A stretch of 64,000 bases of DNA from Candidatus Amesbacteria bacterium (GTDB lineage Bacteria > Patescibacteriota > Microgenomatia > CAZETR01 > Amesbacteraceae). How positions within the stretch are numbered: the stretch's first letter is position 1; each line of letters starts with the position of its first letter. Below are positions 26,032 to 58,390 of the stretch, piece after piece. The DNA lies in NCBI GenBank assembly GCA_963736875.1, contig CAVTQH010000004.1:88050-152049 (forward strand), written 5' to 3'. Both the position numbers and the translations under genes were made by a program. The notes under the pieces are model-generated. The model did no database searches. It was not told the origin of the DNA and was given only the letters and a program-made list of their open reading frames with translations.

Positions 26032-27309
26032 TTAACCCACCTTTTTTCGAATTATCGCTTTAACAAAATATATTGGTAAACCAATCACCAGAAATATAAT
26101 CACTCCGCAAACAATAATTATTGGCAGAAGATTATCTTCTACACCTGTATTTGGAGCGGGTTGTACTTCTGGTTTAGGTGTTTCTTGTTGTGTAGGTATA
26201 GCTGTAATCGTTGGATTTGGAGGAGGTGTGCCAGTTTGAGTTGGAGGGGGATTTGTAGCCGTAGGTGTTGGTGTATCAGGAATAGTGCAATTTAGTTCTT
26301 CACTAAAATCTTTTCGAACAATTAATTGCCCCTGATATGAGATTTCTATCCACTCGGTCACAGTACCAACAAACAACTCCGGCATATCCCCTTCAGGTCC
26401 ACCCCACTCACCAGGAGGAACTTCTTGATATTGAGGAGGCACCCTTGATACCAAATAATTTGCGGCCCAAATTTCACCTTCCACGTGTATATCAACCTGA
26501 TTAATGTTTTTTACCCTTAACCATGGCTGGACGCAATTGATATCTTGTGACCATTCAAAGTTCCATCCGGGAGGTTGGGTAACGGTAGGTGTGGGTTGGG
26601 GAGCGCAATTCAATGTTTCAGGTCCAAAAGATTGTGTTTCTATTACCTCTCCATTGAAAGATAATTCTAACTCTCCACCAACGGTTCCCTGAAAATCAGT
26701 AAACCAATCACCAAGAGTTTCCTCTGGTCCGCACCATCCGTCTATAGGGCATACTGATCCTGGAGGCATTTCTCCAATTACTACTTTATCTCCGTCAACC
26801 GGCTGAGCCCACACATTTCCTGAAATACCAATTTCAACATCCGAAAGGTTGTGAGCTTTTGCTCCAACATGTTGACAATTTGCTTGCCATTCAAAATCGA
26901 ATAAAAATGTTGGTGGTTCGGTCGGAGTTGGAGATGGTTCCGGTGTATTAGTTGGGGTTGGTTCTGGGGTTGGACATTGTACTTGGTATACGACTAAGTA
27001 GCTTATATCGGGTATTTGCCCTCCATCATTGGTCCAATCCACATCCCATCCACCGGATAGCCAAAACTTTTCGCTGTTTTCTGTACCTGCTTTAACACAG
27101 ATTTCGGCTTCTCCGTTGGATACCTCCACATGATGTCCTGACCAGTCTATGACGACACCGTCAATTACTTCGTTGCCTTCACCAGAATCGAACTTGGTTC
27201 CGCCTTCAGGGCAATGTTGATCTTCTGGTGGTGCAGCTACTGCAACATTTACAACAAACAAAAACATTATTGTGAATACCAAAACAAATACAATTTTTTT
27301 AGCGTCCAT
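26032..27309 (-). CDS. Secreted Pro/Thr-rich surface protein with two ~100-aa internal repeats and a sortase-like C-terminal sorting signal (APNTG + TM + RKK)
   Basis: Signal peptide. Repeats begin DFEWQANCQ... and NFEWSQDINC... and are separated by PTPEPTPT linkers. The C-terminus is APNTG-hydrophobic-RKKVG. Confidence 0.5.
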   Translation of the reverse strand: MDAKKIVFVLVFTIMFLFVVNVAVAAPPEDQHCPEGGTKFDSGEGNEVIDGVVIDWSGHHVEVSNGEAEICVKAGTENSEKFWLSGGWDVDWTNDGGQIPDISYLVVYQVQCPTPEPTPTNTPEPSPTPTEPPTFLFDFEWQANCQHVGAKAHNLSDVEIGISGNVWAQPVDGDKVVIGEMPPGSVCPIDGWCGPEETLGDWFTDFQGTVGGELELSFNGEVIETQSFGPETLNCAPQPTPTVTQPPGWNFEWSQDINCVQPWLRVKNINQVDIHVEGEIWAANYLVSRVPPQYQEVPPGEWGGPEGDMPELFVGTVTEWIEISYQGQLIVRKDFSEELNCTIPDTPTPTATNPPPTQTGTPPPNPTITAIPTQQETPKPEVQPAPNTGVEDNLLPIIIVCGVIIFLVIGLPIYFVKAIIRKKVG

Positions 27310-27896
27310 TTTTTCCTCTCTTTTGTTTTTTCTCTTTTTCTTTTTTAAACAATTCTCTTACCACATGATTAATACAATGTTGTTTATTTTTTTTACACAT
27401 GGGTAGACTCCTTAAAAAAATGGATTCAATTGCTACATCTCTCCTGGAGAACACAAATGGATAAATTCACAAATGAAAAAGTTCATGAGAGATCAGATTG
27501 GAAACAACATATCCGATTCCATATCCGGCCAAAAATACAAAAACTGTATTCGCTTATCCCTCAACCAAAATTCCCTTGATTGTTGCGAACTGGGTTAACT
27601 TTAAAACTCTCCTGCGTTTATAAGACGCGCAGAAGGCCCGGCACACCAACCCTAGCACAAGATGGTGATAATAAACCCGGACCCTCGACGCGTCTCACAA
27701 CCCACAAGAAAGATTATTATTCAAACTCTCTTACTCTCTGTTTTTAATGTGCTAGAAAACAAAAAGACTTCGGCCAGACAATTGTCTTGCGTTATAAGAC
27801 TATGGCTAGCCAGTCTCGTGAGCAATAATATCGTATTACAGGCCTCCTGTCAACCAGTCTCTGGTACCCGGTGCTTATTGCCTATATAATGAATTT

Positions 27897-30077
27897 ATGG
27901 CTTTAAAAGTCCTGTCTTTGCGTGTACCCCGGGAGTCGGAAAACACTCCCGAGCAAACCGCCCAGCTTCTGGCTTCCCTTGCCCGTGCCACTAAAGGCGC
28001 TGATTTTCTGGGGCGAATCTCCGGTATTAAACCCATCTACCTCTCATTTGAAGTCACCCTGGTTCACGGTCAAATAACTTTTGCCATTGTTTACCCTGAA
28101 CAATTAGCCTCATTTGTGCAGTCCCAGGCTCTCGCTACATATTCCGACGTGGTAATGTCCGAAATCAAAGATTATCTGCCTGATTGGTTTTCTGATGATA
28201 AACAAGTCTATTGCTCCGCCATCCGCCAGTCGTATGCCCCTTATTATCCACTCCGTGATTATGCCGACTACAAAGAAGTCGACCCCATGCTTCCTCTTCT
28301 GGGTGTGCTCTCCAAAGCCGGACCTGACGATAAAATACTCATCCAGTTTGTGGTCAGACCTGCACCCGGAAATATTACCCGTCAGGCATACAACTACCTG
28401 CACCCCAAAAGCCGGGTTGATTCCCAGGGCAGGACAATCAGGGAAGTTACACCTGAAGGCAAGAAAATTATTGAAGACAAACTATCCCATCCCCTGGTAG
28501 GGGTTTCCATCCATTTTGCTGCTACCCGCCGTGAACTTCTTCACGATCTGAAAGGTGCAATTTCTGTTTTGGATCGTCCTGACGGCAATTCTCTGGTACC
28601 CGCCAGAATCAACCCCTGGCGTAAATACCGTCTCCAACACTGTATTATAAGCCGTGAGCCTTTTACCACCTTCTCGGTGCCTTACACGGTCTTAAACGTG
28701 ATGGAATTATCCTCTCTCTGGCACCTTCCCGGAGTCTATACCAAGCTGCCCAATGTCGCCTGGTCAGTCTCTGCGTCTTTTTCCGAAGCTCCTGAAAACC
28801 TGCCTGTCTATGACAGGGGAGCCAAAGACCAGGAACTAACAACTAACGACGAAATAAACTTCTTTGCAGCTACCACCTTTAAAAATCAGCCTGCCACTTT
28901 TGGAATCCGGCTGGAAGACCGGCTCCGTCATATGTATATTCTGGGAAAGTCCGGTACCGGTAAATCCACGCTTCTGGAAAATATGGCAGTGGATGATTTT
29001 AAAAAGGGCAGGGGAGTAGCTTTCATCGATCCTCACGGCGACAGTGCCGAAGTCCTTTTAAACTATATTCCCTCTCACCGGATAAACGATGTTATTTACT
29101 TTAATCCGGCAGATAGGGAAAATCCGATTTCCTTAAATATTCTTGAGGTTTATAACCCTGATCAGGCAGAGCTGGTTACTTCAGGTATTGTGGCCATATT
29201 TCACAAGCTTTACGGACACTCGTGGGGTCCCCGCCTTGAATATATCCTCCGAAATACACTTTTGACACTTACCCAGATTCCCGGCTCAACCCTTCCCGAC
29301 GTGGTCAGAATGCTTACCGACACCGACTTTCGTAAGGGAAATTACAAAAAAATTGCCAATAGCCAGCTTCTGTCTTTTTGGCAGAATGAATACGACAAAC
29401 TGGACGAAAAAACCCGGACTGAACAAATCAGCAGTATTCTCAACAAAGTCGGTCAGTTTGTAAATTCCCCGCTTATTCATAATCTTATCTGTCATCCCAA
29501 ATCATCCATAAATCTTGAGGATCTTTTAAATTCCGGTAAAATCCTCATCGCCAACCTTTCCCAGGGAAAACTCGGCGAAGACAATGCCGCACTTTTGGGA
29601 GCCATGTTTATCACCAAGCTGCAGCTGGCTGCCATGAACCGGGTGGATCTGCCCAAAGAAAGCCGCCGGGAATTTTTCCTCTACGTTGACGAGTTTCAGA
29701 ATTTTGCCACCGAAAGTTTTATCAAAATCCTGTCTGAAGCCAGAAAATTCCATCTGGGCCTGATACTTGCAAATCAGTATATCGCCCAGATCCCCGAACC
29801 GATTCAGAAAGCCATTTTCGGTAATGCCGGCACCACCATCTGTTTTGTTTTGGGTTCGGAAGACGCCCGGGTGATGGAGGCTGAATTCGGTGGTGCCTTT
29901 TCGGCAGCCAATCTTGTCAGTCTGCAGAAATATCAGATCGCTTTAAGAATGACTATTGAAGGAGCTGTTTCCCTTCCCTTTTTAGCAGTTACTCTTCCCC
30001 CTCACAAATCCCAAAATCAAAACCGCGAAAAAGTTCTTCAATCCTCACGCCAAAGATATTCATTAAAAATCAAGTAA
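27897..30077 (+). CDS. P-loop ATPase of the TraG/TraD/VirD4 coupling-protein (TraG-D_C / FtsK-HerA-like) type
   Basis: Walker A GKSGTGKST, Walker B FFLYVDEFQNF, C-terminal LILANQYIAQ block. The N-terminal ~250 aa have unknown function. This gene and its neighbours are GC-richer than the local average. Confidence 0.5.
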   Translation: MALKVLSLRVPRESENTPEQTAQLLASLARATKGADFLGRISGIKPIYLSFEVTLVHGQITFAIVYPEQLASFVQSQALATYSDVVMSEIKDYLPDWFSDDKQVYCSAIRQSYAPYYPLRDYADYKEVDPMLPLLGVLSKAGPDDKILIQFVVRPAPGNITRQAYNYLHPKSRVDSQGRTIREVTPEGKKIIEDKLSHPLVGVSIHFAATRRELLHDLKGAISVLDRPDGNSLVPARINPWRKYRLQHCIISREPFTTFSVPYTVLNVMELSSLWHLPGVYTKLPNVAWSVSASFSEAPENLPVYDRGAKDQELTTNDEINFFAATTFKNQPATFGIRLEDRLRHMYILGKSGTGKSTLLENMAVDDFKKGRGVAFIDPHGDSAEVLLNYIPSHRINDVIYFNPADRENPISLNILEVYNPDQAELVTSGIVAIFHKLYGHSWGPRLEYILRNTLLTLTQIPGSTLPDVVRMLTDTDFRKGNYKKIANSQLLSFWQNEYDKLDEKTRTEQISSILNKVGQFVNSPLIHNLICHPKSSINLEDLLNSGKILIANLSQGKLGEDNAALLGAMFITKLQLAAMNRVDLPKESRREFFLYVDEFQNFATESFIKILSEARKFHLGLILANQYIAQIPEPIQKAIFGNAGTTICFVLGSEDARVMEAEFGGAFSAANLVSLQKYQIALRMTIEGAVSLPFLAVTLPPHKSQNQNREKVLQSSRQRYSLKIK

Positions 30078-30085
30078 CTGATACT

Positions 30086-30766
30086 TTATATTCCCGGGGC
30101 TGTCCAGATCCTGGCTTTCGATTTCAATTCTTCAACCCACTTGTTGGCTTCCGTCTGTAATTTAGATACTTTCAGCATGTCCGTTGCTTCTTTTCTTTTA
30201 GCCTCATCCGTCGCGGAAGTCATCAGACTTTTATTCTGTGACAGATAAGCGTCCAATTCAGTTTCTGAAACCGCAATCTTATCACTCAATATTTTCTCGA
30301 TCCCGATCCTAAGTTCCAGCTGCTTGCGAAAATCCGTCAGATTCGTACCGTTAGCCGCCAAAACCTCTTCCAGATTGCTGTTTTCTCCCAAAGTAGACTT
30401 AATCTCTTCCACTTTGGCATCAATTTCAGACTGCGTAACTTTGATGTTGTTCTTTTTCAATTCACCGTCAATTAATTTCCTGGTAATTAAATCGTCAACC
30501 ACTGCTTTCCCTCCCTGTTTAAACAATTCCTTGGAAACCTCATATCTGGTAATCGGTTTCATGCCGACAATGGCCACAATTGGCCAGGTAGATGTTTTGT
30601 ACCAGAACAACACAAAAACCACCAAAACTGCCAGTACACCAATAATTAAAGATGTTTTCTTATTTTTACCGGGATTTGCGGAATTCCCGAAGACCTCACT
30701 TTTCACAACTTCTCCGAAATCGGGAGTTACGGTTTTTCTTATCCTTTTAACGGCCATAACAATCAT
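30086..30766 (-). CDS. Membrane-anchored SurA N-terminal-domain-like chaperone (no PPIase domain)
   Basis: TM anchor then a helical domain resembling SurA_N/PpiD N-terminus. Weak. Confidence 0.35.
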   Translation of the reverse strand: MIVMAVKRIRKTVTPDFGEVVKSEVFGNSANPGKNKKTSLIIGVLAVLVVFVLFWYKTSTWPIVAIVGMKPITRYEVSKELFKQGGKAVVDDLITRKLIDGELKKNNIKVTQSEIDAKVEEIKSTLGENSNLEEVLAANGTNLTDFRKQLELRIGIEKILSDKIAVSETELDAYLSQNKSLMTSATDEAKRKEATDMLKVSKLQTEANKWVEELKSKARIWTAPGI

Positions 30767-30801
30767 GTTATCATGAGTAAAACCTATCGTCCAGTAGATA
30801 A

Positions 30802-31203
30802 ATGAGCCTCTCAGTACATCCCAATTTCATAGATAAATTTTATTTAAAGATTTATCCTTCGTATCTTTATCCGGGACAGCTCTGCCAGCCGCTTTCCACG
30901 ATTAATGTGGGTATCCTTCATAAATTACCGGATATTACCCCTGTCTGGAAAATAATGGATTACGTATATCTCAAAAAAGAAACCATACTTAAATTTTTAG
31001 GCTTAGCAAAGAAATTGCACTTTAGTGACGATATTCAGCCTGTATTTACCATTCTTGAACTGGTAAACCCGGTCATTGACGAGAGCAAGTCATTCGGCAA
31101 GCATCTCTCTCCGGGAGACATGATCACCTTGACTCCGTTTGACCGTAAGTTTATTATTGCCGCTCCTCCTGCCGAACTTCCCCGGCCTTATATCATTCCA
31201 TGA
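30802..31203 (+). CDS. Hypothetical protein
   Basis: 133-aa ORF. Confidence 0.3.
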   Translation: MSLSVHPNFIDKFYLKIYPSYLYPGQLCQPLSTINVGILHKLPDITPVWKIMDYVYLKKETILKFLGLAKKLHFSDDIQPVFTILELVNPVIDESKSFGKHLSPGDMITLTPFDRKFIIAAPPAELPRPYIIP

Positions 31204-31937
31204 CATTGAACAGACTATTACATAAAAATAATATCACTCTCATACAGGACGTTTATAACGCCTGTAAAGAGGGGATTAGGCTGATGTCAAAAAGCCCTGA
31301 TCCTCTTCACAATCACCACCACATCTTAAACATGCTCAAAGACTTGGATCTGATGCTTTCTAATGATCATGAAATTAATTGGAAAAAAGTAAATTTCAAT
31401 GTTCTTCTTCTGTCTATTACCTGGCACGATATCTGGAAATCACAGCGTTTACCCAAAAGTCGTAAGAAACTGGTTTACCACTGGTTTGCTGAGGGTATCG
31501 GATCCATGCGTTTATTCTCCAAAGAAACCAAAAAGTATCATTTTGACCCGATGATCACCAAAAAAGTCCGTTACGCCATACGCAAACATCCATATTTCCA
31601 ATTACTTCCCAAAAGAACCATTGAATCCAAAATTCTGAAGTCTCTTGATGAGTTGGAAGACTTTTCGATTGACAGATTTAAGGAAGGTTTGAATTCAATT
31701 CACGAACTTTCCGAAGTCAGTCCCCGTCTCGCATCTCTTTTTAGATTCTACTATCAGCATTGGATCAGCCGTAAAAACGGTTACGGCAGTAAATACTCCT
31801 GGTCACGAATCGAATATCAAAAAAGAAAGCACGTCTTTTTCACTCAAATTTGGCCGGTACTTAAAGTGTATTTAAAGGGTTTTTCCAAAACCAAGCCTCT
31901 ACCTCATATGTTTCTGCCTGCAAAGAACCAACTATGA
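31200..31937 (+). CDS. Hypothetical protein, possible HD-domain phosphohydrolase
   Basis: Spaced H...HD...H...D residues (HNHHH, WHDIWK, RKH, LDELED). Weak. Confidence 0.3.
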   Translation: MTLNRLLHKNNITLIQDVYNACKEGIRLMSKSPDPLHNHHHILNMLKDLDLMLSNDHEINWKKVNFNVLLLSITWHDIWKSQRLPKSRKKLVYHWFAEGIGSMRLFSKETKKYHFDPMITKKVRYAIRKHPYFQLLPKRTIESKILKSLDELEDFSIDRFKEGLNSIHELSEVSPRLASLFRFYYQHWISRKNGYGSKYSWSRIEYQKRKHVFFTQIWPVLKVYLKGFSKTKPLPHMFLPAKNQL

Positions 31938-32494
31938 CAACCAATCCTCCTCTTCCTCCCGCCCAAACGACAAATCCCATAACGGATCTGCTGACTCTCA
32001 TCAGTAATCATAAACCTGAAGAACCCAAAATCCCGGCCCCTTTAACTTCCCGTTTCAGGACTTTTTTTGAGTTTTATACCGACGAGCTGCAAAAAGCAAA
32101 ACTTAGTTTTACCCCCATCAACGTTGATGAAATTGCCTCACATCTGTCCCGTTTCTATGAAATGATTCGTAAAGTTATAGATTGGAAAGAAGATAATGCC
32201 CTTAGACGCGGAGCCATTTCCCGTATTCTGAAACGGATTCTTTTTCCGTATCTCTCCGGTCTTACCACGGAACATTTGGAGACTTCGGAAATGGCTGAAA
32301 CCATCACTCTGGAACTGATCCGCGGGGGCCATCTCCCAAATAACGCTATACCTCAGGAAAGAATCGCCTCAGTCGCCGAAGCACTGGAAAAATATCTGAC
32401 CCTGATATCCGGCAGTTCTCTCCGTAAAACGGTTTCCGGAGTCAAAACCAAAATAAACTATACAACTTTCATTCTTGGAAATCGCCGTTTGTGA
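31934..32494 (+). CDS. Hypothetical protein
   Basis: 186-aa ORF with a 4-nt overlap to the upstream gene. Confidence 0.3.
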   Translation: MTTNPPLPPAQTTNPITDLLTLISNHKPEEPKIPAPLTSRFRTFFEFYTDELQKAKLSFTPINVDEIASHLSRFYEMIRKVIDWKEDNALRRGAISRILKRILFPYLSGLTTEHLETSEMAETITLELIRGGHLPNNAIPQERIASVAEALEKYLTLISGSSLRKTVSGVKTKINYTTFILGNRRL

Positions 32495-34241: not shown

Positions 34242-35249
34242 TTAATTCTTCTGTAGTTCCCTTAATTCAAACATTTTCAGAACGGGTATAGCTGCATTTC
34301 GGAATGCGTTTTCAACAGATTCACTTCTCATACCTGATTTCAGGCTGTCTTTTGCATTGCTTACAGGCAATCCGTTTTCGTCAAGCAATACATGGTCAAA
34401 ATTACTTGCCCCCCGGGTATAAGCAAAACCTACTGAAGTTTTATAAGCTTTATTCCACCAGGAAACTACATTACCGGCTGCAATCGATTCCATTGAGGTG
34501 ATAATTACCGTATCTTCGGGTTTTTTCTTCAATAAGTCGGAAGCCATTGTTCTGGCCCGGAGGTCAGATTGAAAATCATGCCAAAACAAATCCCCGGATA
34601 TTTCCATGACATTCCCTCGGCCCCCATACTTTAAAATCCGGATTTATTCTTCCTGACGCAGCATACAATTCCTCAGCCAGTGCGGTATCCATATATAAAC
34701 GGCTGGCCGGGTTGGGATCATCACTGCTCCAGAATTCCGGTTTCACTTCCCGGGTCAAAGCCTGATCTGCGCCATAGTACTGTAAATCGTAATCAGCCGA
34801 AATTGAATTAATACATACATCTCCGATTGCCGCACCTTTATTTGAAGATATTCCCCCGATTCCGCTTAATATCACTTCTTTAATCCGGTTTTGATAAACC
34901 TGCATAATATTTGTCATACAGGCGGTAGTTTTCACTTTACCGATACCGCTGACTACAACCAACACTGGTTGCCTGTGTATATATATCCCATATACCCCTT
35001 ATCGCACAGTGGGATCATTGCACTTACATCAGACTCTTTCTCAATTGTATTCATAAACGGTGCTGTTTCTCCCTGCCATATACCCAAAATATTTTTTGAT
35101 CCGAAAGGAGAGACTATTACCGACACCTGATCCGCCACATCGACTTTTTTCAACGATCCGGGTTTGACTCCGACAAAAATAATCCCTGTAATCAAGGCCG
35201 TAATTAGTAATACAAAAATCCCTACTTTTCTCATATGCAATAGCTTCAT
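34242..35249 (-). CDS. mtnN: 5'-methylthioadenosine/S-adenosylhomocysteine nucleosidase-like (PNP_UDP_1 family) with N-terminal signal/TM; broken into three ORFs in this assembly
   Basis: Three pieces, N to C: 34953..35249 (ILGIWQGETAPF ~ GAMEEE block), 34576..34965 (SGIGKV...SGIGGISS ~ GIGKV/GTAGG) and 34242..34607 (TSMESIAAGNV ~ MEGAAVA). Confidence 0.55.
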
Positions 35250-35333
35250 TATATCCTATAGTAGCATTTATGGCAATTTGTTATCCCATTTACATTGACA
35301 TTACAAAAATCTCGTATATTATAGGACCATAAT

Positions 35334-37318: not shown

Positions 37319-37390
37319 CGCCCCTGAGAGGAATCGAACCTCTATCAACTGTTCCGAAGACAGTCACTCTATCCGTTGAGCTACAGGGGC
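37319..37390 (-). tRNA. tRNA-Arg (anticodon TCG)
   Basis: Hand fold: acceptor GCCCCTG/CAGGGGC, anticodon stem ACTGT/ACAGT with loop CTTCGGA, T-loop TTCGATT. No encoded CCA. Confidence 0.8.
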
Positions 37391-37549
37391 TGAATATACC
37401 ATAAATTTTAACACTTAAGCTTGTTTGCAACCCTCTAATATGTATACAATTAGGTAGTGATTTCCATCCTGCCTCTGTTTGTATCATTTTTTGCGCTGTT
37501 AAACATATTCATATTTTCCCCGCCATCCGGCTGTTCCTGCTCTACCGAT

Positions 37550-40500
37550 ATTGCCTCCGGCTGTTCTGGGTATTTCAAATTACGCCCCTACCGTCTATAT
37601 CAGTAATACTTCCGACGGTTACAATGCGGGGGGTGTTTTAAGTCAATCCAGCCTTGATGAACCTGCCATAAATCTCTCCACATACAATTCCACCGGTCCG
37701 GCTTCGCTTGATATTTATCAGGCTTCAATAAATGATGTTTTATCTTTTTTAACCTACGATTCCGAAAGCAAACAAAAACTTATGTTTGATTCTTCTCAAC
37801 TTTCCAAAGTTACTACTTTAACCACCAATATTTCTTCCTCCGGAGACAACCGCCTGCTTTTACCGATACAGGGAGAGGGTATTTGGTTTCTGAAAGATTA
37901 AATTCGGCCAAAACGAAAATTCCGCTTTTTTAATCCGTTCGGAAATCGAAGCCGTTGTAAAAGAAGGCGACAACAAGCTTCTTTTCTGGGTTCAAAATCT
38001 GACTACAAAAAAAACTGTTACCTCCGGTGTCTTAGAATTATTCAACCTTCTTGATTCTCCCCGGTCCCTGATCAAATCCGGTCTGGACGGTAAAGGTGTA
38101 ACAAGCATTTCTTACTCTCCTCAAACTTACGATGTCGCAATACTAACTTCCGATAATCACACCACCCTTATACCCATAAATATGCGTTATTTAAATTTCG
38201 GAGACCGTTACAATCAGTTTCTTCCCAGAAGCCGCATGTCACGGTATTTTATTTTTACCGACCGTCCGCTATATAAACCCGGTGATACGGTATATTACAA
38301 AGCCGTCATCCGGGATGATAACGACGTCCGATATTCCATACCAAAAGGCTTGGCTACAGTCCGGGCTTTTAAAGACTGGAATGTTCAAAGCGCATTTTTT
38401 TCCCAGACTCTCCCCGTCTCCGATAAAGGCACCATTACCGGACAATTCACTCTTCCGGTCGCCCAGGGAACGGGACACTTCCAAATCTCAATCCAAACCC
38501 AAAACCCCGGTGTCACATCCGGTGATTGGGAATATGAATCTTTCGGACAGGACAGTATCGGTTTTCAGGTCGAATATTTCCGAAAACCGGAGTACACCCT
38601 TGACGTCTCAACCCCCTATACTGAATATCGTCGCCGGTGATCAAATCGAGTTTACGGTCTCGGGTGCTTATTTTTCCGGTGCCCCGCTTAACCAGCAAAA
38701 CGTAAAATATTCACTTTACTCATCAAATTATTACGAATATGAATACCTTTTCAATAACCAAAATCTGCCGTCCGGCAGCAAATATTACGGCTACTGGAAC
38801 GGAAATAAAATCCAGGATGGTGAACTGACTTTAAACGGTACGGGACAGGCCAGCTTTTTAGTTCCTTCTTCCGACGGCAGATATAAATCCTCACGTTCAC
38901 AAATATTTTCCTTTGAAGTCCAATTTACTGACGAATCCGGAAATCCCGTACTGGCCAGAAAAAATATTCTGGTCTATCCCGCAGAGTTTAATATTTACCG
39001 CCGGAGTGGCTTTTATACCGGTCAAACAAACCGGCCGTTTGTCCTTCCGATAATTGTAAAAAGTATTCGCGGCAGTCGGATCAACGATCTCCGACTGACC
39101 GCCGGCATTCTCCGTGAAAGCTGGATTGCTCTTCCTTTGACACCAGGTCAAAAATATCCCACTTATGTAAAAGAAACCGAAAATCTTTCCTCATCTGTCC
39201 GCCATCACCAACTCCCTTGGTGAAGCCCAGTTTTCTTTTACTCCGGTAAAGACCGGTTCTTATACCTTTACCATCAGCGGTACTGATCAGAAAGGAAATG
39301 TTGTATCCAAAAACATGTACATTTGGATATCCGATACTACCCGCCCCACCCCAACCGGTCAGTATTATGAGGAGTTAAAGATAGAAACCGATTATCCCTC
39401 CTATCAGCCTGCGGATAAAGTAAATTTAAAAATTTGGTCTGATATCCCGGACCGGGATTTCCTGCTCACCTGGGAACGCGGCCGTGTCAATCGCTGGCAG
39501 ATCGTTAAGCTTTCAGGGCAATCCTCAAGCTTTACGCTGCCTCTGGAATATACCGATATTCCCAATATCTATATCACTGTCTCCGGTTTTTCTGAAAGTT
39601 CTTTCCTTTCGGATACCGTTAATGTAGATGTTTCTCCGGAAAGCCAGCGCTTAAATATCAGTCTTTCTCCCAACCTGAGCAGATACGGCCCCGGTCAGTC
39701 GGTAGTCCTTGACGTTAAGACCACTAATCAGCTTGGCAAACCTGTATCCGCTGACCTTGCCGTTTGGGCTGTTGATAAAGCCATATTCGAGCTTTCTGAC
39801 TCAAACGTCAGCGATATTTTTAATCGTTTTTGGTCAACCAGGGGCAATCAGACCAGCACCGGCCATTCACTTGAAAATATTTTGGTAAACACAGCTGAGG
39901 GAGGCGGCTGTTTTACAGCTGATACTAAAGTTTTAATGTCCGGTGGTTTTACCAGATCCATTGAAGACGTCAAACCTGGTGATACCATCCTGACCCGGGT
40001 ATCGGCAAACGATTCCCGCCTGACAAAAGCCAGGGTTCTGTCCACCCATTCTGCTACCGTTGACGGAATAATTATTTTAAATTCCCGTCTGAAAGTTACC
40101 CCCAATCATCTGCTTTGGGTAAATAATTCCTGGAAGACAGCGTCTCAAATCAAAAAGGGAGATATTCTTTCCAACTTTTCGGGCTCGTCAAACATTGTTA
40201 CTTCCGTTGAATGGCAAGCCGGTAAAATCCCCGTCTACAACTTAAAAATTGCAGATTTCCATACATATTTTGCCGAAGGAATCTGGGTCCACAATGACAA
40301 GGGAGAAGGAAGCGCCCGCTCGATATTTAAAGACACGGCATACTGGAATCCCACAGTTACCACCGACAGACTGGGTCAGGCCCAGGTAGTATTTACTCTT
40401 CCGGACAATCTCACTACCTGGACAATTGCTGCAGTCGGATCCACTGCAGACACCCAGGTGGGTCAGACTACGACGGAAATTATCTCATCAAAGGAAGTCA

Positions 40501-42539
40501 TTGTCAGACCGGTTCTTCCCAACCTGATTCGTATAGGAGACAAACTTCGGATTTCGGCTCTGGTGCACAATTTTACTGATGTTACTCAGGATTTTACCGT
40601 CGGCCTCAATTTTGACTCCGGCCAGATTACTCCTCCAGCCACTCATCAGCCAGTATCCATCTTACCCAATAATTTCCGCAGTTTTAGCTGGATTATTTCA
40701 CCGGATTCCGTAAATCCCGTCCGCCAAACTTACATTTTCGGCCCAAACCGCATCCGGTAAATCCGATTCTGTGCAGTCTGTTCTTGCCGGTCATCCCCTT
40801 CGGTTTTATGGAAACCAGTGCCCGGATCGGAAACGGAAATCAATCATATTCCGTCGAATTTCCCCCTGACGCGGATTTATCCCAATCTTCAATTACTCTT
40901 TCACTTGGCTTCAAACATTTTGGGAACCTTGCCTGCGGCTATGAAATACCTCATCGGTTATCCCTATGGATGTATCGAACAAACCACCAGCCGTCTGGTC
41001 CCGGCCATAATTACCAAAGCCAACCTGGATATTTTTTATGACGCTCTTGATCAGAAAGATATTACAAAAATTATTTCTGCCGGTCTTAACCGGTTATCCG
41101 CATTAAAATCCGTTGACGGCGGTTGGGGTTGGTGGCACTCTGTTCAAAATTCTGATCCTTTTATTACTTCGTATGTTCTGGAATATTTGTTCCTGGCCAA
41201 ATCTTCCGGCATCGAAATACCCGATGAACTTATAAAACCGGCTGTAAATTTTCTCAAGTCTTACAATCCCAAGGACGAAAATTCCCGTGTTTACAAGATT
41301 TACGGACTTAAATATTGCGGGTGAATCGGAAGGAAAAGAAAAATTAACAAATTTCGATGCTTATTCACCGGTATCTTTGGCATATGCCGTTATAAGCAAT
41401 GCCAAAAACGGAGACCAGAATCCCGATACCAACGGTTTAAAAAATCTTTTGTCCCGCTATAAAACCAGCGGGGACAATATTTATTGGGAAGCCGATTCTC
41501 AAAGTACTTTTCCTTCTTTGGAAGCCTCTACCGCCGTTTCGATCCGGGCAATTATCCAAGGAGGAGGGAACAGGGAACTGGCAGTCAAAGCCGCCCGTTA
41601 TCTGTCTGGGCAACCGCAAAAATAATTATTGGGCTAACACCTTCGCCACTGCTCAGATTATCAGAAGTATTACTGATCTTCACCGCACCGGTGGTGAAGC
41701 TGATCCCAATTTTTCTTATACGTTTAAATTTAACGACAGTTTGATAACCTCTGCCCAGATCACTTCCTCTGTCCAGCTTATTAAAGATATCGTTATTCCC
41801 GCCGCTTCAATAAAAATCGGATCAAATAAGTTCGATCTGTCATTCACCGGTACGGGACAAATATACAGTACGTTACTCCAAAATATCTGGCGTACTGATA
41901 AGAATGCCTCTCCCCAATCACATACAATTTCTTTATCCCGAAAATATGTAAACGACAAAGGAGAAGACTACACACTGGGAGTCGGTGACAGTGTTTCGGT
42001 TATTCTGACCGTTATCGGGTTTACCTCCTGATGCCCGTTATTTGGTCATCGAGGACTATCTTCCGTCCGGTTTGATACCTGTAAACACCAATCTCTTAAA
42101 CGAAAAGGCTGATAATGATTATTCCGTTTCCAAAGAGTATACGGCAAACGGTGCAATCATGTTTTCCCCGGTAATCGGTAACACGACATCATATTCATAC
42201 AAAGCCCGGGTAATTTCCCAGGGAGAATCAGTAGCCCCTCCCGCTATGGCGCAATTGATGTATCAGCCTGAAGTAAATGCCCTTAGCGAAACCAGTACTC
42301 TGATTACGGAGGAATTCAGCCGTTCTACCAAAACCCCGGTTGAAAATATCACCCGGTCAATTAAAAAATTCAGCCTTATCATTACCCCAAATTATTATTC
42401 TGGGATTATTAATTATCATTCCCCCTCCCTTCATCTTTTTAGACGATCAGAATCATCAAAAATCGTCACCCACCCCATCCTATTGAGTAAATTGAAAGCT
42501 GTCCAGTATTTTCCCAAAAGGCACCAACTCTTCATCTGA
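37550..42539 (+). CDS. Alpha-2-macroglobulin family thioester-containing protein (~1650 aa) with a Hint/intein-like insertion; reading frame changes ~9 times in this assembly
   Basis: MG-domain motif FIFTDRPLYKPGDTVYYKAV. Post-bait motif FKDTAYWNPTV...LPDNLTTWTI (equivalent to FPETWIW...PDTITEW). Thioester motif YPYGCIEQTTSRLVP. The ORF pieces 37551-37901, 37894-38640, 38282-39223, 39171-40760, 40818-41324, 41287-41625, 41741-42031 and 42042-42539 are collinear with A2M. Confidence 0.7.
39909..40295 (+). other. Hint (intein / bacterial intein-like) domain, 129 aa, inserted in the A2M bait region
   Basis: N-terminal CFTADTKVLM (block A), VTPNHLLWV (block B, TxxH), C-terminal VYNLKIADFHTYFAEGIWVHN (blocks F/G ending HN). 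The +1 residue is Asp, not Cys/Ser/Thr. Confidence 0.7.
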
Positions 42540-43125
42540 TAAACTTCCGTTTCCCATCATATTCACATAATAATTAATTTTATCTTTGATAAACCAGGTG
42601 GTCACACTCCACCAGCTTTGTTTGATATCTTCCGTTACCATATCCACTTCCGCAATTCTCACGGCCGGTAAACCCGCAACTTCTTCATTTTTCAATTTTA
42701 TGGTACCCGTGCCTGAAGCTATTTCATCGGGTTTATACCTCCAATCCATAAATTCACTGTACTTTGAAAAAGGTTGGTTTGCGGCTGGGGGAGGCTACTG
42801 CCGTTACTGATATTTCTCCGATATTTCCTACCAGATGATCTACAGTTCTTTTTATTACAGTTCTGGCTACAAAACCCGCCTCATCACTGGCTTCGACCAC
42901 AAACCACCCCACGGGAACCCTCACACTATAACCGGCTTTCAGATTCTTATAATCCTTGTATTCGATTGTTTTAACCACGTTTGGCTTCTCTTTTTTGAAA
43001 TTTACCCAGACTCCCCATCCCGCAGCAACCGCCAAAAATATTGGGATCAGTATCCAAACCCGCTTTTTCATAATAAAATTATTATAAACAAATTTTAAAG
43101 ATTTGTTATACTCACTGTTATGCAA
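42480..43125 (-). CDS. Hypothetical secreted protein (two ORFs, possible frameshift)
   Basis: MKKRVWILIPIFLAVAAG signal peptide. ORFs 42754..43125 and 42480..42749 are adjacent in different frames. Convergent with the A2M 3' end. Confidence 0.3.
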
Positions 43126-43809
43126 AAGCCTTGGATAGTTGTTTTACTCTCATTATTTGCCGCCGCACTGCTTCTGGGAATTATCATTTTTTCTCTTAAA
43201 CCTGATTCCGCAAATATCGTTAATGATCAGGTCCAAAAGACCGGATTAAATGATACAATTACTCCAACCATAACTATGCCGACTCCCGCAATAAATCCGA
43301 ATATCCAATATTTCGCAACTCTTAATACTTCGGAAGGAAAAATTGAAATAAAATTTAATCTGGGACAAACTCCTCAAACAGTAGGAAACTTTATCAAATT
43401 GGCCAAATCCGGTTTCTATAACAATACCGTTTTTCACAGAGTGATCTCGGGTTTTATGATCCAGGGCGGCGATCCTAAAGGAGACGGCACAGGAGGTCCG
43501 GGGTATACCTTTGCTGATGAACCGTTTACCGGTGAATACACTCGGGGAACTGTAGCGATGGCCAATGCCGGTCCCGATACCAACGGCAGTCAGTTTTTTA
43601 TTATGCATCAGACCCGTCCTCTGCCTAAAAACTATGTTATTTTCGGACAAGTAATTTCGGGTTTGGAAACTGTAGATAAAATTGCTTCCGCACCGGTTAC
43701 TGCCGGAAAATCCGGTGAAAATTCATCACCCGTAAATCCCGTAAAAATTCTTACGATAGATATCTCCGAAAAACCTGTCGCTTCCCCTTCTGCTGCCGTA
43801 TCCCCATAA
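43120..43809 (+). CDS. ppiB: Peptidyl-prolyl cis-trans isomerase, cyclophilin type, membrane-anchored
   Basis: FHRVISGFMIQGGDP...GTGG cyclophilin signature, N-terminal TM. Confidence 0.85.
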   Translation: MQKPWIVVLLSLFAAALLLGIIIFSLKPDSANIVNDQVQKTGLNDTITPTITMPTPAINPNIQYFATLNTSEGKIEIKFNLGQTPQTVGNFIKLAKSGFYNNTVFHRVISGFMIQGGDPKGDGTGGPGYTFADEPFTGEYTRGTVAMANAGPDTNGSQFFIMHQTRPLPKNYVIFGQVISGLETVDKIASAPVTAGKSGENSSPVNPVKILTIDISEKPVASPSAAVSP

Positions 43810-43833
43810 CCGAAAAAGAGTATACTGACACAT

Positions 43834-43992
43834 ATGGCAAAGAGATCAACCGGTGTCGGCAGACAAAAAATGTCCCATCCTCACAAGACCGCGAAACGTC
43901 TTGAAACCAAACGCCAGATGCTTTTACTGAAAAACAGCAAACACCGAAAACACAACAGAACCATCAGTGCCGGAAAGTTGAGACCAAGATAG
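43834..43992 (+). CDS. Small highly basic ORF (52 aa), possibly a ribosomal-protein-like peptide
   Basis: MAKRSTGVGRQKMSHPHKTAKRLETKRQ... Lys/Arg/His-rich. Below the ORF-table cutoff. Not matched to a specific family. Confidence 0.25.
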   Translation: MAKRSTGVGRQKMSHPHKTAKRLETKRQMLLLKNSKHRKHNRTISAGKLRPR

Positions 43993-44005
43993 GACGTTTA
44001 GAAAA

Positions 44006-44076
44006 TTATCCTTGAGCGGGTAAGGGGAATCGGACCCCTGTATTCAGTTTGGAAAACTGACGCCCTGCCATTGAGC
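44006..44076 (-). tRNA. tRNA-Gly (anticodon TCC)
   Basis: Hand fold: acceptor GCGGGTA/TACCCGC, anticodon stem TCAGT/ACTGA with loop TTTCCAA, T-loop TCCGATT. Confidence 0.8.
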
Positions 44077-44114
44077 GATACCCGCAGGTCTTCTGATTAT
44101 ACCTAAAAATATAT

Positions 44115-44825
44115 TTAAAGAAGAATAAAACTCATCAGGCTGGCGTCCAACTGCCCTTGATATTTTTCCCAGGCTGAATTCAAGGCCGTGGCGGTAATTA
44201 CATAAGCCTTACCCTTATCAATAAGTATCAGCTGCAGATTATGTAACGGATATACCCCCATGTCATACCTTGCCTCCAATATGACTCCGTCTTTTCCCCC
44301 GATTGTTTTTCTTTGTTCATTTATCAACTGATAGTTTGAAAATGACTTTGTCAAAACTTCTTTGCTGGCTGCAAGATAATCATCCAAAGTTACATCGACA
44401 GCCGCTTCGGATACGACATTGATATTTACGGAAAATTTATTTCCCGAGTCATCGTCGCTGACTGTATTAGCCACACTCACCAATGTTCCGAAGGACCCGC
44501 TTTCATCAACCCTCCAATCTTTAGGATGAGATATCTTAAATCCTCCCTTGCTGCTGGTAAATTGTTTTAACTCAACATCTCCGGTTACCGTCAAACCGCT
44601 GTCCGTAGCTTCACTAACCGGCGATAACAGTTGATTCTCTCCGGAAGGAAGGGGGGTTTCAACTTTCGATTTCTTAATATTACCCGCGATTAACTTGCTG
44701 ATCATCCATATCCCTGCTATTACGCCGGCCAATCCTACAATCCCCAGAATTATCCAGATTATCATTGCTGATTTTTCTTTGACTTCAGACTTATCGGTTT
44801 TCAAATCATAAGCATTCTTTATCAA
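44115..44825 (-). CDS. Membrane-anchored PsbP/DUF1795-like protein
   Basis: N-terminal TM after a short cytoplasmic tail. The C-terminal domain pattern (F.I.HP.DW...GS) is PsbP-like. Starts with TTG. Confidence 0.35.
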   Translation of the reverse strand: MIKNAYDLKTDKSEVKEKSAMIIWIILGIVGLAGVIAGIWMISKLIAGNIKKSKVETPLPSGENQLLSPVSEATDSGLTVTGDVELKQFTSSKGGFKISHPKDWRVDESGSFGTLVSVANTVSDDDSGNKFSVNINVVSEAAVDVTLDDYLAASKEVLTKSFSNYQLINEQRKTIGGKDGVILEARYDMGVYPLHNLQLILIDKGKAYVITATALNSAWEKYQGQLDASLMSFILL

Positions 44826-45119
44826 AATCCGATTTTGTTTCTGTAATCTCGGCTTTATCGGCTATCCCCAAGTCAAATTTGCTGGTTCCGCTGGCATCAC
44901 CGGTTGTCACAGCGACCGAACCGTCAGATTCCAAACCCGGTACTTTCAGCGCCTGGAATGCCTTTTCAATATCTTCATCTGCCCAACCGCTTTCAGCCAA
45001 TATTTTCCTAATTTCCGGATCAGTTATTCCGGCTTTAAGTTGCTCCCTGATATAGTCTACTAACTCCTGGTTCACTTCCTCAAGTTTATCATGAAAACTT
45101 TCCCAATTCCCGTATTTTG
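44806..45119 (-). CDS. Hypothetical small acidic protein
   Basis: The ORF-table ORF 44806..45222 runs into tRNA-Pro, so the real start must be downstream of 45120 (non-ATG start likely). Confidence 0.25.
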
Positions 45120-45191
45120 TCGGAGACGAGGGAATTGAACCCTCTACCTCTCGGTCCCAAACCGAGCGTTCTACCGATGAACTAGTCTCCG
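45120..45191 (-). tRNA. tRNA-Pro (anticodon TGG)
   Basis: Hand fold: acceptor CGGAGAC/GTCTCCG, anticodon stem CTCGG/CCGAG with loop TTTGGGA, T-loop TTCAATT. Confidence 0.85.
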
Positions 45192-45195
45192 TATG

Positions 45196-45280
45196 TGCCG
45201 AAGGCGGGACTCGAACCCGCATGAAGTGTTATCTTCGGGGGCTCTTAAGGCCCCTGCGTCTACCATTTCGCCACCTCGGC
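45196..45280 (-). tRNA. tRNA-Leu (anticodon TAA), type II
   Basis: Hand fold: acceptor GCCGAGG/CTTCGGC, anticodon stem GGGGC/GCCCC with loop CTTAAGA, long variable arm, T-loop TTCGAGT. Confidence 0.8.
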
Positions 45281-45303
45281 ATATACAAATTATATTATAA
45301 TTA

Positions 45304-45389
45304 TGTCGGTAATGGGCGAGTGCTGAAATTGGTATACAGGCATGCTTGAGGAGCATGTGGCCTTAATCGGCCGTGCAGGTTCAAGTCCT
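45304..45389 (+). tRNA. tRNA-Leu (anticodon GAG), type II
   Basis: Hand fold: acceptor GGGCGAG/CTCGCCC, anticodon stem CATGC/GCATG with loop TTGAGGA, long variable arm. Confidence 0.8.
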
Positions 45390-45391
45390 GT

Positions 45392-45409
45392 CTCGCCCAC
45401 CGCCTGCCG
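45392..45409. repeat. GC-rich hairpin element GCCTGCC-GGCG-GGCAGGC; its exact reverse complement recurs at 63168..63185
   Basis: 18-nt near-palindrome between tRNA-Leu(GAG) and tRNA-Leu(CAG). The inverse-orientation copy lies after rplT. Confidence 0.5.
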
Positions 45410-45425
45410 GCGGGCAGGCCCATCC

Positions 45426-45511
45426 GGGCGGATGGCGGAACGGTAGACGCGCTAGCTTCAGGAGCTAGTGACCTTAAAACGGTCGTGGAGGTTCAAATCC
45501 TCTTCCGCCCA
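45426..45511 (+). tRNA. tRNA-Leu (anticodon CAG), type II
   Basis: Hand fold: acceptor GGGCGGA/TCCGCCC, anticodon stem CTAGC/GCTAG with loop TTCAGGA, long variable arm. Confidence 0.8.
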
Positions 45512-45531
45512 CAGTACAATTGCTATAATAT

Positions 45532-45605
45532 GGACGATTAGCTCAGCTGGTTAGAGCGCCTCTCTTACACAGAGGAGGTCGGGGGTTCGAGCCCCTCATC
45601 GTCCA
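45532..45605 (+). tRNA. tRNA-Val (anticodon TAC)
   Basis: Hand fold: acceptor GGACGAT/ATCGTCC, anticodon loop CTTACAC, T-loop TTCGAGC. Confidence 0.85.
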
Positions 45606-45629
45606 CAAATAAAAAGCAAACAATCTCAA

Positions 45630-45702
45630 GCCGAGATAGCCAAGGTGGTCACGGCGGGCGCCTGAAGAGCGTCAGATTGAGGTTCGACTCCTCATCTCGG
45701 CA
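45630..45702 (+). tRNA. tRNA-Phe (anticodon GAA)
   Basis: Hand fold: acceptor GCCGAGA/TCTCGGC, anticodon stem GGCGC/GCGTC with loop CTGAAGA, T-loop TTCGACT. The D-arm is atypical (3-bp stem, 11-nt loop). Confidence 0.75.
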
Positions 45703-45737
45703 CACCCTAATTTAGCTTTGTTTATGTGTTATATTAG

Positions 45738-51095: not shown

Positions 51096-51711
51096 ATGGC
51101 GGCTCACTACGACGACTCTCTCTTTTCCTACCCCGACTATTGGATCGGACGCGATTATGAACATACAAGTGAAATTCTCGCTCTTAAACATCTGTTAAAT
51201 AAGTGATCATTTTGAGTCTGCTGCAGATATCGGAGGAGGGTATGGACGGTTAATCCCTCTATTACAGAAATACGCCGGAAAAATTTCTTTGGTGGAACCT
51301 TCTCTCAAACAGCGACGTCAGGCTAAAAATTATCTCGACCCCCGAGCCAAAATATCCATTATTTCCGGATCTGCCCAAAAAACAGGACTTAAAGATAATT
51401 CCCAGGATCTGGTCGTTATGATCCGGGTGATGCATCATTTACCCCAGCCCCAGCCGGTCCTTCAGGAACTCCATCGGATTTTAAAACCAGGCGGAAAACT
51501 AATTCTGGAATATGCAAATTCCCATCATTTCAAAGCCCGTCTGAAAAGCCTTATAAACGGGCAGCCTCTGCTTCTTACCCCGATTGAAAAACGCAGTCTG
51601 ATAAATATCAAAAAACATACAATTTCTTTTGTAAATCACAGTCCTGTCTCCATTCAAAAACTGCTTTTTACAATCCGGATTTACCGTTATCACCACTCTC
51701 TCCGTATCTAA
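51096..51711 (+). CDS. Class I SAM-dependent methyltransferase; apparent frameshift near 51200
   Basis: N-terminal piece MAAHYDD...ALKHLLNK ends at a TGA. Motif I DIGGGYGR and the downstream VVMIRVMHHL...LKPGGKLILE continue in another frame. Confidence 0.5.
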
Positions 51712-51839
51712 TCTCAGATCTCCTTTTCTTAAAAAATTTATTCCTTATCCGATTCTTACAAACCTGGAACGGATTATTCAGCCTGTTCTCGGAAAAATTA
51801 ATTTCGGTCCTAGTATCTTTATTCTGGCCAGTAAAAATC

Positions 51840-52775
51840 CTAAACTGAGAATATTTGACTTTTTGGAAGACCCATAGTAATATACGACCAGGTTTCGTAG
51901 CTTAGCTTAACCGCTTTGCTGTGAGATTTTAAAAGCCTCGGCACTGGGCAGGAGCCGGGGCTTTTTTTGTGCCTAAATTTCATACTATAATCAAACTGTG
52001 CGCCTCGTGGTGAAATGGTATACACGCAGGCTTTAGGAGCCTGTCCCAGCGATGGTGGTAGGAGGTTCGAGTCCTCTCGAGGGCACATTACAAACTTACT
52101 TTCCTGGCTTCTTTCCATTACTCTGAAATTATTATTCCCTGGATTATTTACCAAATCAGCCACCCGGTAAGCTTCCATTTTATCCGTTTCATTAGGTTCC
52201 ATTATTTTCTTGAGTCTTTCGATATCAAAAAATTTATTATTCAGCCAATCCTCTTCATCTTCTGTATTTAGTATTACCGGCATCCGGTCGTGAATTTCCA
52301 TCATTGTCTTATTTGCCTTTGTAGTCACAATTGAGAATGTCTTAATCTCAAACCCCTGGGCATCTTTCCAGATATCAAAAATTCCGGCAAAACCGAATAT
52401 TCTTCTTTCAACAAGCCTGATCCAATATGGAATTTTAAGTACTTTTCCCCGATCGGAAACTTTTCTCCACTCAAAAAATCCGCTGGCCGGTACCAGACAT
52501 CGCTGCTGTCTGAAAGCTTTTCTGAAAGCCGGTTTAACTTCTATCTCCTCGCTTCTGGCATTAATTGTGCTGTAGCTGATACGCGGATCCCTGGCCCAGA
52601 ACGGAATCAAACCCCATTTCATTTTTTCCACCTTTTTGGGGCTTTTCATGGTTACCACCGGCATTATCATTCCCGGTGCCACGTTATATTCCGGTGACAT
52701 TTCCACCTCGCGGTTTTCAATTTCAAACCGGTCATAAAAATCTTTTTCCGGTATAAATCCGTATCTTCCGCACAT
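51840..52775 (-). CDS. yedK: SOS-response-associated peptidase (SRAP/YedK/HMCES family) abasic-site processing protein
   Basis: N-terminal MCGRYG (Cys2 nucleophile) and SGFFEWR motifs. The family length (~230 aa) implies an end near ~52100, but the ORF stays open to 51840 and reads antisense through tRNA-Leu(TAG). Confidence 0.75.
   Translation of the reverse strand: MCGRYGFIPEKDFYDRFEIENREVEMSPEYNVAPGMIMPVVTMKSPKKVEKMKWGLIPFWARDPRISYSTINARSEEIEVKPAFRKAFRQQRCLVPASGFFEWRKVSDRGKVLKIPYWIRLVERRIFGFAGIFDIWKDAQGFEIKTFSIVTTKANKTMMEIHDRMPVILNTEDEEDWLNNKFFDIERLKKIMEPNETDKMEAYRVADLVNNPGNNNFRVMERSQESKFVMCPREDSNLLPPSLGQAPKACVYTISPRGAQFDYSMKFRHKKSPGSCPVPRLLKSHSKAVKLSYETWSYITMGLPKSQIFSV
51935..51968 (+). 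terminator. Rho-independent terminator (9-bp GC stem + T7), A-tract on the other side
   Basis: AAAAGCCTCGGC-ACTGGGCAGGA-GCCGGGGCTTTTTTT. Confidence 0.6.
52001..52085 (+). tRNA. tRNA-Leu (anticodon TAG), type II; the first two acceptor-stem pairs are mismatched
   Basis: Anticodon stem CAGGC/GCCTG with loop TTTAGGA, long variable arm, T-loop TTCGAGT. The 3' acceptor CGAGGGC faces 5' CGCCTCG (C1-C72 and G2-G71 unpaired). Confidence 0.6.
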
Positions 52776-54393: not shown

Positions 54394-54792
54394 ATGGAAA
54401 TTCCCCGTCACTGGCGCTTAAAAAAACAAAGATACGCTCTGATCGGAGAAATCTGTCCCCATTGTGATGCCAAACTTTTCCCTCCCCGGGACATTTGTCC
54501 GCAATGCAAAAAGGAGGCAAAAACACCTTTCCAATTTTCCGGAAAAGGAGAAATTTACTCACACACAACCATGCATGAAGGTCTCCCTGACGGTTATCAG
54601 GGTCTTGTTCCGCTTTCTATCGCCCTCATCAAACTGGAAGAAGGTCCTATTATTACTGCCCAACTTACCGATCTGGGGGATAAAAAGCCGGAAATCGGTA
54701 TGCCGGTGGAAATGGTAACCCGCAGGTTACAAGATAACAGTGACGAACAGGGAATTATTGTTTACGGTTATAAATTCCGTCCTGTACTGTAA
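54394..54792 (+). CDS. DUF35-family Zn-ribbon + OB-fold protein (COG1545)
   Basis: CPHCDAK...CPQCKK zinc ribbon followed by an OB-fold-like C-terminus. 132 aa. Confidence 0.55.
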   Translation: MEIPRHWRLKKQRYALIGEICPHCDAKLFPPRDICPQCKKEAKTPFQFSGKGEIYSHTTMHEGLPDGYQGLVPLSIALIKLEEGPIITAQLTDLGDKKPEIGMPVEMVTRRLQDNSDEQGIIVYGYKFRPVL

Positions 54793-54822
54793 ATTCTTCA
54801 TTCCATGTAGTATTATCGGCCT

Positions 54823-55418: not shown

Positions 55419-55423
55419 CCATT

Positions 55424-56140: not shown

Positions 56141-56161
56141 TATATAATATAATAACCAAAT

Positions 56162-56797: not shown

Positions 56798-56883
56798 TAT
56801 CCGCTTGCACTCAAACCCGATTCCGGGATAGAATAAATTATCAATATCAAGCCTTATTTATTCATATGATAAATATAATTTCC

Positions 56884-58275: not shown

Positions 58276-58313
58276 CCGCTCTGATGATATAATTTAACCG
58301 CCTTACCGGGCGC

Positions 58314-58390
58314 GGACTCGTAGCTCAGTTGGCTAGAGCGTCGCATTGACATTGCGAAGGCCACAGGTTCGAATCCTGTCGGGTCCACCA
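58314..58390 (+). tRNA. tRNA-Val (anticodon GAC), CCA encoded
   Basis: Hand fold: acceptor GGACTCG/CGGGTCC (one G-U), anticodon stem TCGCA/TGCGA with loop TTGACAT, T-loop TTCGAAT, discriminator A plus CCA. The final A is the A of the downstream ATG. Confidence 0.85.

Follow-up and report, generated by a model that had tools for sequence, protein, structure and literature searches.

The window analysed here, a stretch of 64,000 nucleotides from contig CAVTQH010000004.1 of Candidatus Amesbacteria bacterium, contains a gene of roughly 5 kb for a thioester-type alpha-2-macroglobulin (A2M) that carries a Hint domain. The A2M-Hint gene runs on the plus strand through window positions 37457–42490, from a GTG start at 37457 to a TAA stop at 42488–42490. 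In the open reading frame (ORF) listing and in a three-frame translation of 37.4–42.7 kb it appears as a single long plus-strand coding region, fragmented into alternating frames. As deposited, it is not one uninterrupted coding sequence, being broken at 12 points, each time by a +1 shift. The locus codes for a full and unremarkable member of a family of cell-surface, thioester-type A2Ms that is conserved in the candidate phyla radiation (CPR; Microgenomates), and the gene itself is probably intact, with insertion errors in the public contig. The original prediction had placed it at 37550–42539; the GTG context at 37457 is also kept in a contig from a related species (L079, see below), and the stop at 42539 is the end of an out-of-frame tail. 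An upstream ATG at 37440, in combination with an additional 2-nt insertion, was also considered; this was rejected, as L079 shares both the ATG...TAG arrangement and the GTG start.

Pfam searches with the gene fragments reveal MG2, A2M_BRD, PT-HINT/Hint, A2M, TED_complement and bMG10, which is the order of bacterial A2Ms. The corrected protein, with the additional bases removed, yields an identical domain set in identical order, including a bait-region domain followed by an A2M domain as required for the family. A signal-like N-terminus, as originally predicted, is present from GTG 37457 (MISILPLFVSFFALLNIFIF), and the N-terminal signal or anchor peptide MISILPLFVSFFALLNIFIFSPP, shared with L079, occupies 37457–37525. 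The MG2 domain (PF01835; E 3e-14 on the fragment, 5e-13 on the corrected protein) lies at 38245–38526, and a motif search places the MG-domain motif FIFTDRPLYKPGD at 38248–38286. Downstream are the bait-region domain (PF07703, A2M_BRD; 39375–39794; E 2e-16) and a flexible bait linker (39855–39908; pLDDT <50, model residues 181–196), which ends in Gly-Gly-Gly directly 5' of Cys1 of a Hint/BIL-like domain. The latter (39909–40295; PF07591, E 8e-12) comprises 129 aa from Cys1 to His-Asn, with Asp as the +1 residue. The A2M domain (PF00207; 40335–40601; E 3e-19) is preceded by FKDTAYWNP and includes LPDNLTTW, located by motif search at 40398–40421. The thioester motif GCIEQ (40968–40982) is within the TED domain (PF07678, from ~40926; E 6e-9), and the bacterial MG10 domain (PF17973; E 1.6e-16) lies at 41933–42272. 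A C-terminal membrane helix, QIIILGLLIIIPPPFIF, with a basic tail and the TAA stop (42388–42490), is seen only once the last two insertions are removed. All of these features are on the plus strand, all of the motifs quoted in the original prediction are present, and the A2M is indeed the host of the Hint domain, which sits in its bait linker. There is no lipobox, as the signal peptide is not followed by a Cys; the protein has a C-terminal transmembrane anchor instead. No pbpC-like gene lies beside the A2M gene, which is flanked by tRNAs, a DcrB-like gene and a cyclophilin gene.

The corrected protein aligns collinearly with SaA2M of Salmonella (4u48) and ECAM/YfhM of E. coli (5a42), with E ~1e-25, and the N-terminal region aligns to SaA2M residues 277–524. 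An AlphaFold (AF2) model of the native 481-aa ORF of the window, corresponding to residues 619–1099, has a mean pLDDT of 82.8 and is made up of MG-type beta-sandwiches that match A2ML1, SaA2M, ECAM, C3–C5, TEP1 and CD109. Confidence is low in both linkers flanking the Hint domain and in the out-of-frame tail. Domain order on both the fragments and the corrected translation, alignment to SaA2M and ECAM, and the modelled fold therefore all bear out the earlier identification of an approximately 5-kb gene collinear with A2M/ECAM.

The frame (coordinate mod 3) along the gene follows the path 2,0,1,2,0,1,2,0,1,2,0,1,2, that is, 12 changes and 13 segments. Every change is from k to k+1, equivalent to one additional nucleotide, and 12 breaks out of 12 with the same sign is far from chance (two-sided P ~5e-4). 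Removal of the 12 bases generates a single ORF of 1,673 codons with no internal stop, in which the C-terminal membrane helix and basic tail are restored as in relatives. When aligned with the five closest homologues, every junction joins without a gap. Repeated frame changes, as originally described, are therefore real, their number being 12 rather than about nine. The A8 run suggested as an example of a shift site (38007–38014) lies inside an unbroken frame, 37894–38637.

Cluster mates (90% and 50%) of the fragments and of neighbouring genes led to contigs from related species. L079 (JGI Ga0115028_10208859; 82% nucleotide identity) is syntenic with window positions 37382–38622, L076 (ENA) and L077 and L078 (both JGI), at 84% identity, with 40723–44640, and L075 (JGI; 6,157 bp; 86% identity) with 54604–60720. 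A2M peptides used to scan GTDB genomes and JGI metagenomes hit no relative of more than 57% identity, and a composite-query protein search gave no matches. The last 586 codons of the A2M gene are one open frame in the related-species contigs, and the first 386 codons are in a single frame in L079, apart from one in-frame TAA. This TAA (L079:826–828, aligned to window 38209–38211) stands where the window has TAC (Tyr); it may be a true nonsense mutation or else a mistake in a contig that is short and of low coverage.

For nine of the 12 breaks, the additional single base is missing from the related species. Insertion 1, a T at 37526 (frame 2 to 0), is absent from L079 in the DNA alignment, as is insertion 2, a G at 37896 (frame 0 to 1), where stops in both frames limit the shift to 37894–37898. 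Insertions 6 (T, 40784) and 7 (A, 40903) are absent from L077, insertions 8 (C, 41307), 9 (G, 41604) and 10 (A, 42014) from L077 and L076, and insertions 11 (C, 42374) and 12 (A, 42443) from L077, L076 and L078. The remaining three are outside the coverage of the relatives, and their positions were derived by homology. Insertion 3 (frame 1 to 2) would be one base within GAAT at 38623–38626, since L079 is in frame through STPYT to 38622 and the homologues resume with IVAGD at 38627. A placement in the C5 run at 38612–38616 was given up, as L079 stays in frame beyond the run; the corrected ORF was built with 38612 deleted, and placement at 38623–38626 alters approximately 4 residues but not the length. 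Insertion 4 (frame 2 to 0) would lie within 39183–39194, where the join KETENL..LSAIT is gapless against homologues P0001–P0005, and insertion 5 (frame 0 to 1) within CCCG at 40716–40719, where SVNP|SAKL is likewise gapless against homologues.

The inserted bases show no obvious sequence preference. The flanking bases differ at nine of the 13 precisely mapped insertions, none of the ten homopolymers of at least 6 nt in the A2M gene is affected, codon phase is spread 4/5/6, and no 4-mer is enriched at the insertion sites, the junctions sharing no motif. Taken together, these properties do not fit replication slippage. Expansion of runs by +1 had at first seemed to fit all junctions, until comparison with the relatives revealed the differing flanks and the absence of hits in runs of at least 6 nt. 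A motif for methylation or restriction (CCGG was suspected) was likewise discarded, the 4-mer test not being significant (6 observed versus 3.3 expected). The idea that both alleles were emitted at synonymous single-nucleotide polymorphism (SNP) sites was unsupported, there being no third-position excess in codon phase.

Apart from the nine single-base insertions, only one in-frame 3-nt indel separates the length of the A2M coding sequence from that of its relatives. Across A2M and the DcrB-like, cyclophilin and M20 genes described below, all 15 of the coding length differences from intact orthologues are insertions (14 of 1 nt, one of 2 nt). By contrast, intergenic indels relative to the same contigs are all gaps in the window, i.e. 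of opposite sign, which indicates a lineage without a natural insertion bias. Once the insertions are removed, the 3' 586 codons show 89% identity to L077 and a dN/dS of 0.074, and the 5' 386 codons have a dN/dS of 0.11 against L079; values for intact neighbours are 0.079 for the peptidyl-prolyl isomerase (PPIase) next door and 0.04–0.11 for others. Compared with 25 intact homologues, the corrected protein departs at one of 126 invariant and 10 of 239 near-invariant columns, which is mid-range. Approximately 4.1% of possible substitutions in the gene would create stops. Neutral decay with 12 indels, at an indel to substitution ratio of 1:10, predicts approximately 120 substitutions and five stops, and no stop is seen (P ~0.007).

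A search with the stitched translation found at least 293 intact homologues of approximately 1,700 aa, mostly in Microgenomates/Patescibacteria and including Gottesman-, Davies-, Woese-, Woyke-, Roizman- and Beckwithbacteria and 'Patescibacteria group' members. Among the best 120 of these, almost all are 1,650–1,780 aa long with an identical Pfam set, and nearly all have the Hint insertion. In GTDB species representatives, 30 loci each have one open frame as far as the contig reaches; 21 are complete, encoding 1,641–1,744 aa. The C, E and Q of the CxEQ thioester motif are invariant in 26 of 26 family members examined. An A2M had been thought uncommon in a CPR-like genome; the uninterrupted frames at the 30 GTDB loci and in at least 293 matches indicate instead that A2M is common in the CPR and that the breaks are specific to this contig. 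In 16 of 21 other genomes (L003–L029), a membrane-anchored Memo-like gene (PF01875) lies 3' of the A2M gene on the same strand, and a CapA/PGA_cap protein is encoded nearby in seven of the 21. Neither gene is present in the window or in the closest relatives.

The frame breaks are present in the deposited record, as the public 311,559-bp NCBI/ENA contig, which includes the window, records A2M pieces of 481, 134, 112 and 96 aa as separate proteins. Six broken-gene fragments (four A2M, one M20 and one cyclophilin) are recorded only from this contig. The Logan assembly of run ERR12040022, an independent k-mer assembly, lacks them although it includes other parts of the genome, and no protein of the A2M region was found in it. 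Two Logan contigs, L001 and L002, cover window positions 2368–6180 and 27305–32448 and are 99.8–99.9% identical to the window. No indel separates them over these 9 kb, and of the 14 SNPs 13 are synonymous, which means that the ERR12040022 sample also contains a sister strain under purifying selection.

Inspection of frames and Pfam searches with suspicious ORF pairs revealed similar breaks in five further genes of the window, giving approximately 22 breaks in all, A2M included, with a like density of 2–5 per kb in each broken gene. About half of the breaks fall in the A2M gene and its immediate neighbours, which again is far from chance. A PNP/NUP-like phosphorylase gene (34245–35255, minus strand) is split into three frames. 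Two small ORFs 3' of the A2M gene are one DcrB/PsbP-like gene (42480–43071, minus strand) with an inserted G at 42783; the equivalent in L076–L078 is an intact 196-aa ORF. A SAM methyltransferase gene (51289–51877, plus strand) is split into two frames with a shift near 51672. A second cyclophilin gene (54823–55418, plus strand; dN/dS 0.17), intact at 197 aa in L075, has insertions at 55174 (G) and 55218 (T). The M20 peptidase gene (56885–58275, plus strand), intact at 450 aa in L075, has insertions at 57004 (T), 57079–80 (AA), 57371 (C) and 57845 (A) and a doubtful one at 58234 (G); even with these 5–6 insertions its dN/dS is still 0.058. Intact paralogues of the cyclophilin and DcrB-like genes are present in the window (43120–43809 and 44115–44765, the latter DcrB-like). 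All large ORFs, the 15 tRNAs, trigger factor and DUF5660 are unbroken.

Downstream of the M20 gene, at 58390–58401, one T is missing relative to L075 just after the ATG of an epimerase gene, so that the ORF now begins four codons later, at TTG 58401. No other 1-nt deletion was seen at a coding edge. Elsewhere in the window, seven tRNA genes (Pro, Leu x3, Val, Phe) are clustered on both strands at 45119–45703, and a 726-aa DUF8128/DUF87/TrwB-like ATPase, encoded at 27897–30077 on the plus strand, may be a coupling-protein-like NTPase.

The original prediction left open whether the A2M gene is a decaying pseudogene or an intact gene mangled by indel errors. This was the right question, and the evidence favours the second half of it. 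The organism probably makes a full-length A2M, and the 12 additional bases are most likely consensus errors of the assembly. A technical origin is favoured by the sign, randomness and cleanness of the events, by the like density in the broken genes and by the lack of the fragments in the Logan assembly. The pattern resembles single-molecule-read insertion noise in segments with poor support, or else a fault of consensus building or polishing; such noise could have been left in low-depth or long-read-bridged segments. Several observations nevertheless weigh against assembly error. The 9 kb shared with the Logan contigs, without indel and with mostly synonymous SNPs, show that the assembly is not generally poor, and approximately 50 kb of other ORFs are clean. 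Trigger factor and DUF5660 (55424–56797, 1.4 kb), situated between the broken cyclophilin and M20 genes, have no breaks (P ~0.015 at the local density). In addition, the usual residual errors of ONT, HiFi and Ion (flow-based) sequencing are homopolymer-centred and of both signs. The breaks track genes rather than regions, a pattern that would be expected from selection on real mutations. The insertions could also be real. In that case a burst of single-base insertions would have inactivated the A2M gene and a further five accessory genes of this strain very recently, perhaps through one-base additions in mutagenic end-joining or through an insertion-prone polymerase, and dead genes would then gather more hits. 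Consistent with this, multiple hits occur only in the six genes, with adjacent genes and every large housekeeping ORF left intact, the contig is otherwise free of indels against the independent assembly, the broken cyclophilin and DcrB-like genes are plausibly dispensable given their intact paralogues, and the Memo-like gene that follows A2M at 16 of 21 other loci is absent here. We nevertheless regard real insertions as rather unlikely. Deletions and nonsense codons are absent, amino-acid change is not in excess, the insertions are not in homopolymers, none is found in intergenic DNA, and an indel to substitution ratio of at least ~0.3 with 100% insertions would be required. Bacterial mutation spectra are deletion-biased and homopolymer-centred, and we know of no natural one with such a ratio composed only of insertions, deletion bias being the rule. 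That an untemplated burst of this kind, free of deletions and substitutions and with no preference for homopolymers, has very recently disabled six accessory genes, the surface A2M among them, is, if anything, more doubtful still. If true, it would be a sign of unusual mutagenic repair or replication, one-base addition in end-joining being a candidate, and the contig would hold the record of an insertion-only mutational process not known in bacteria.

Two other explanations are far less probable. Twelve frame breaks in one gene might indicate an old, decaying pseudogene, but after correction there are no internal stops, deletions, rearrangements, raised dN/dS (0.07–0.11) or losses of the residues invariant in the family, and long-standing decay is barely credible. 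The uniform +1 sign, and the constraint still evident in the frames downstream of each shift, could also suggest programmed +1 recoding, by ribosomal frameshifting or four-base decoding at 12 sites, to give a full-length protein. However, the sites are unconserved, the 30 GTDB loci and four contigs of close relatives having no frame change there (the single in-frame TAA of L079 aside), there is no common slippery motif or adjacent stop, the 15 tRNAs of the window are ordinary, and 12 successive shifts would leave almost no product. Such recoding is therefore highly improbable. It is most likely, too, that the frame breaks have no biological basis. On the reading preferred here, that of an intact gene in a faulty consensus, the locus should be annotated as one A2M-Hint gene with suspected sequence errors, rather than as nine or more small ORFs or as a case of genome decay, and at least five other genes of the contig need the same caution.

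The Hint domain stands where other A2Ms hold the protease bait. Gly-Gly-Cys1, TxxH and the C-terminal His-Asn are invariant in all 26 family members, and the +1 residue, Asp in this protein, is Q, D, E, N or G in the family and never C, S or T. The lack of a +1 nucleophile indicates that canonical splicing is not expected, and the domain resembles a BIL-type cleaving domain rather than a canonical intein. Its fold matches the BIL2 domain of Tetrahymena BUBL1 (6y75) with a TM-score of 0.81 and an rmsd of 2.1 Å, and Gly-Gly before Cys1 is also found in the ubiquitin-like substrates of BUBL chemistry. Family members without Hint have a clean empty site, AERGGG|GGxxxR, at the exact insertion point. 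The conserved residues suggest a domain able to break the chain at Gly-Gly|Cys, via a thioester, and after His-Asn, without canonical splicing. No paper describing a Hint or BIL domain in an A2M was found in the literature, and the A2M-Hint family of the CPR, which is large and conserved, is apparently undescribed.

By analogy, the protein is probably a surface-anchored protease trap of the ECAM kind. In ECAM, opening of the bait region exposes the thioester, which binds the protease covalently (PMC4498604). The A2M described here would similarly trap proteases by its CxEQ thioester once the bait region had been opened, and the Hint domain would cleave at Gly-Gly|Cys. Such cleavage may serve in maturation, in triggering or as a second reactive centre. 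The place of the Hint domain in the bait region suggests a protease trap able to open or activate itself, or one that bears a second reactive (thio)ester. It is this architecture, in which the bait region carries a Hint domain whose Gly-Gly|Cys junction is invariant and which lacks a +1 nucleophile, together with the insertion-only pattern, that keeps the finding from being trivial.

Comparison with known systems reveals both likenesses and differences. Error-prone metagenome assemblies also contain adjacent ORFs that arise from 1-nt indels and whose translation is fully homologous to intact orthologues; here, by contrast, there are insertions only, outside homopolymers, in six genes of an otherwise clean contig. 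The early pseudogenes of host-restricted bacteria such as Buchnera carry single-base indels in long A/T runs, deletions included. The A2M gene is like these in that 1-nt indels interrupt it with little other damage, but its long runs are untouched and all of the events are insertions. With the BIL/Hint domains (6y75) the inserted domain shares the Hint fold, Cys1, TxxH and His-Asn; it differs in being set in the bait region of an A2M with Asp, Gln or Glu at +1. With ECAM/YfhM (5a42, 4ziq, 4rtd) and SaA2M (4u48) the protein shares MG domains, bait-region domain, A2M domain, CxEQ thioester domain and MG10 in the same order, and model residues 619–1099 match their folds. CPR bacteria are expected to have no outer membrane, and in place of a lipobox and a pbpC-like neighbour the protein of this CPR host has a signal peptide and a C-terminal membrane helix, its bait being a short Gly-rich linker that bears the 129-aa Hint domain.

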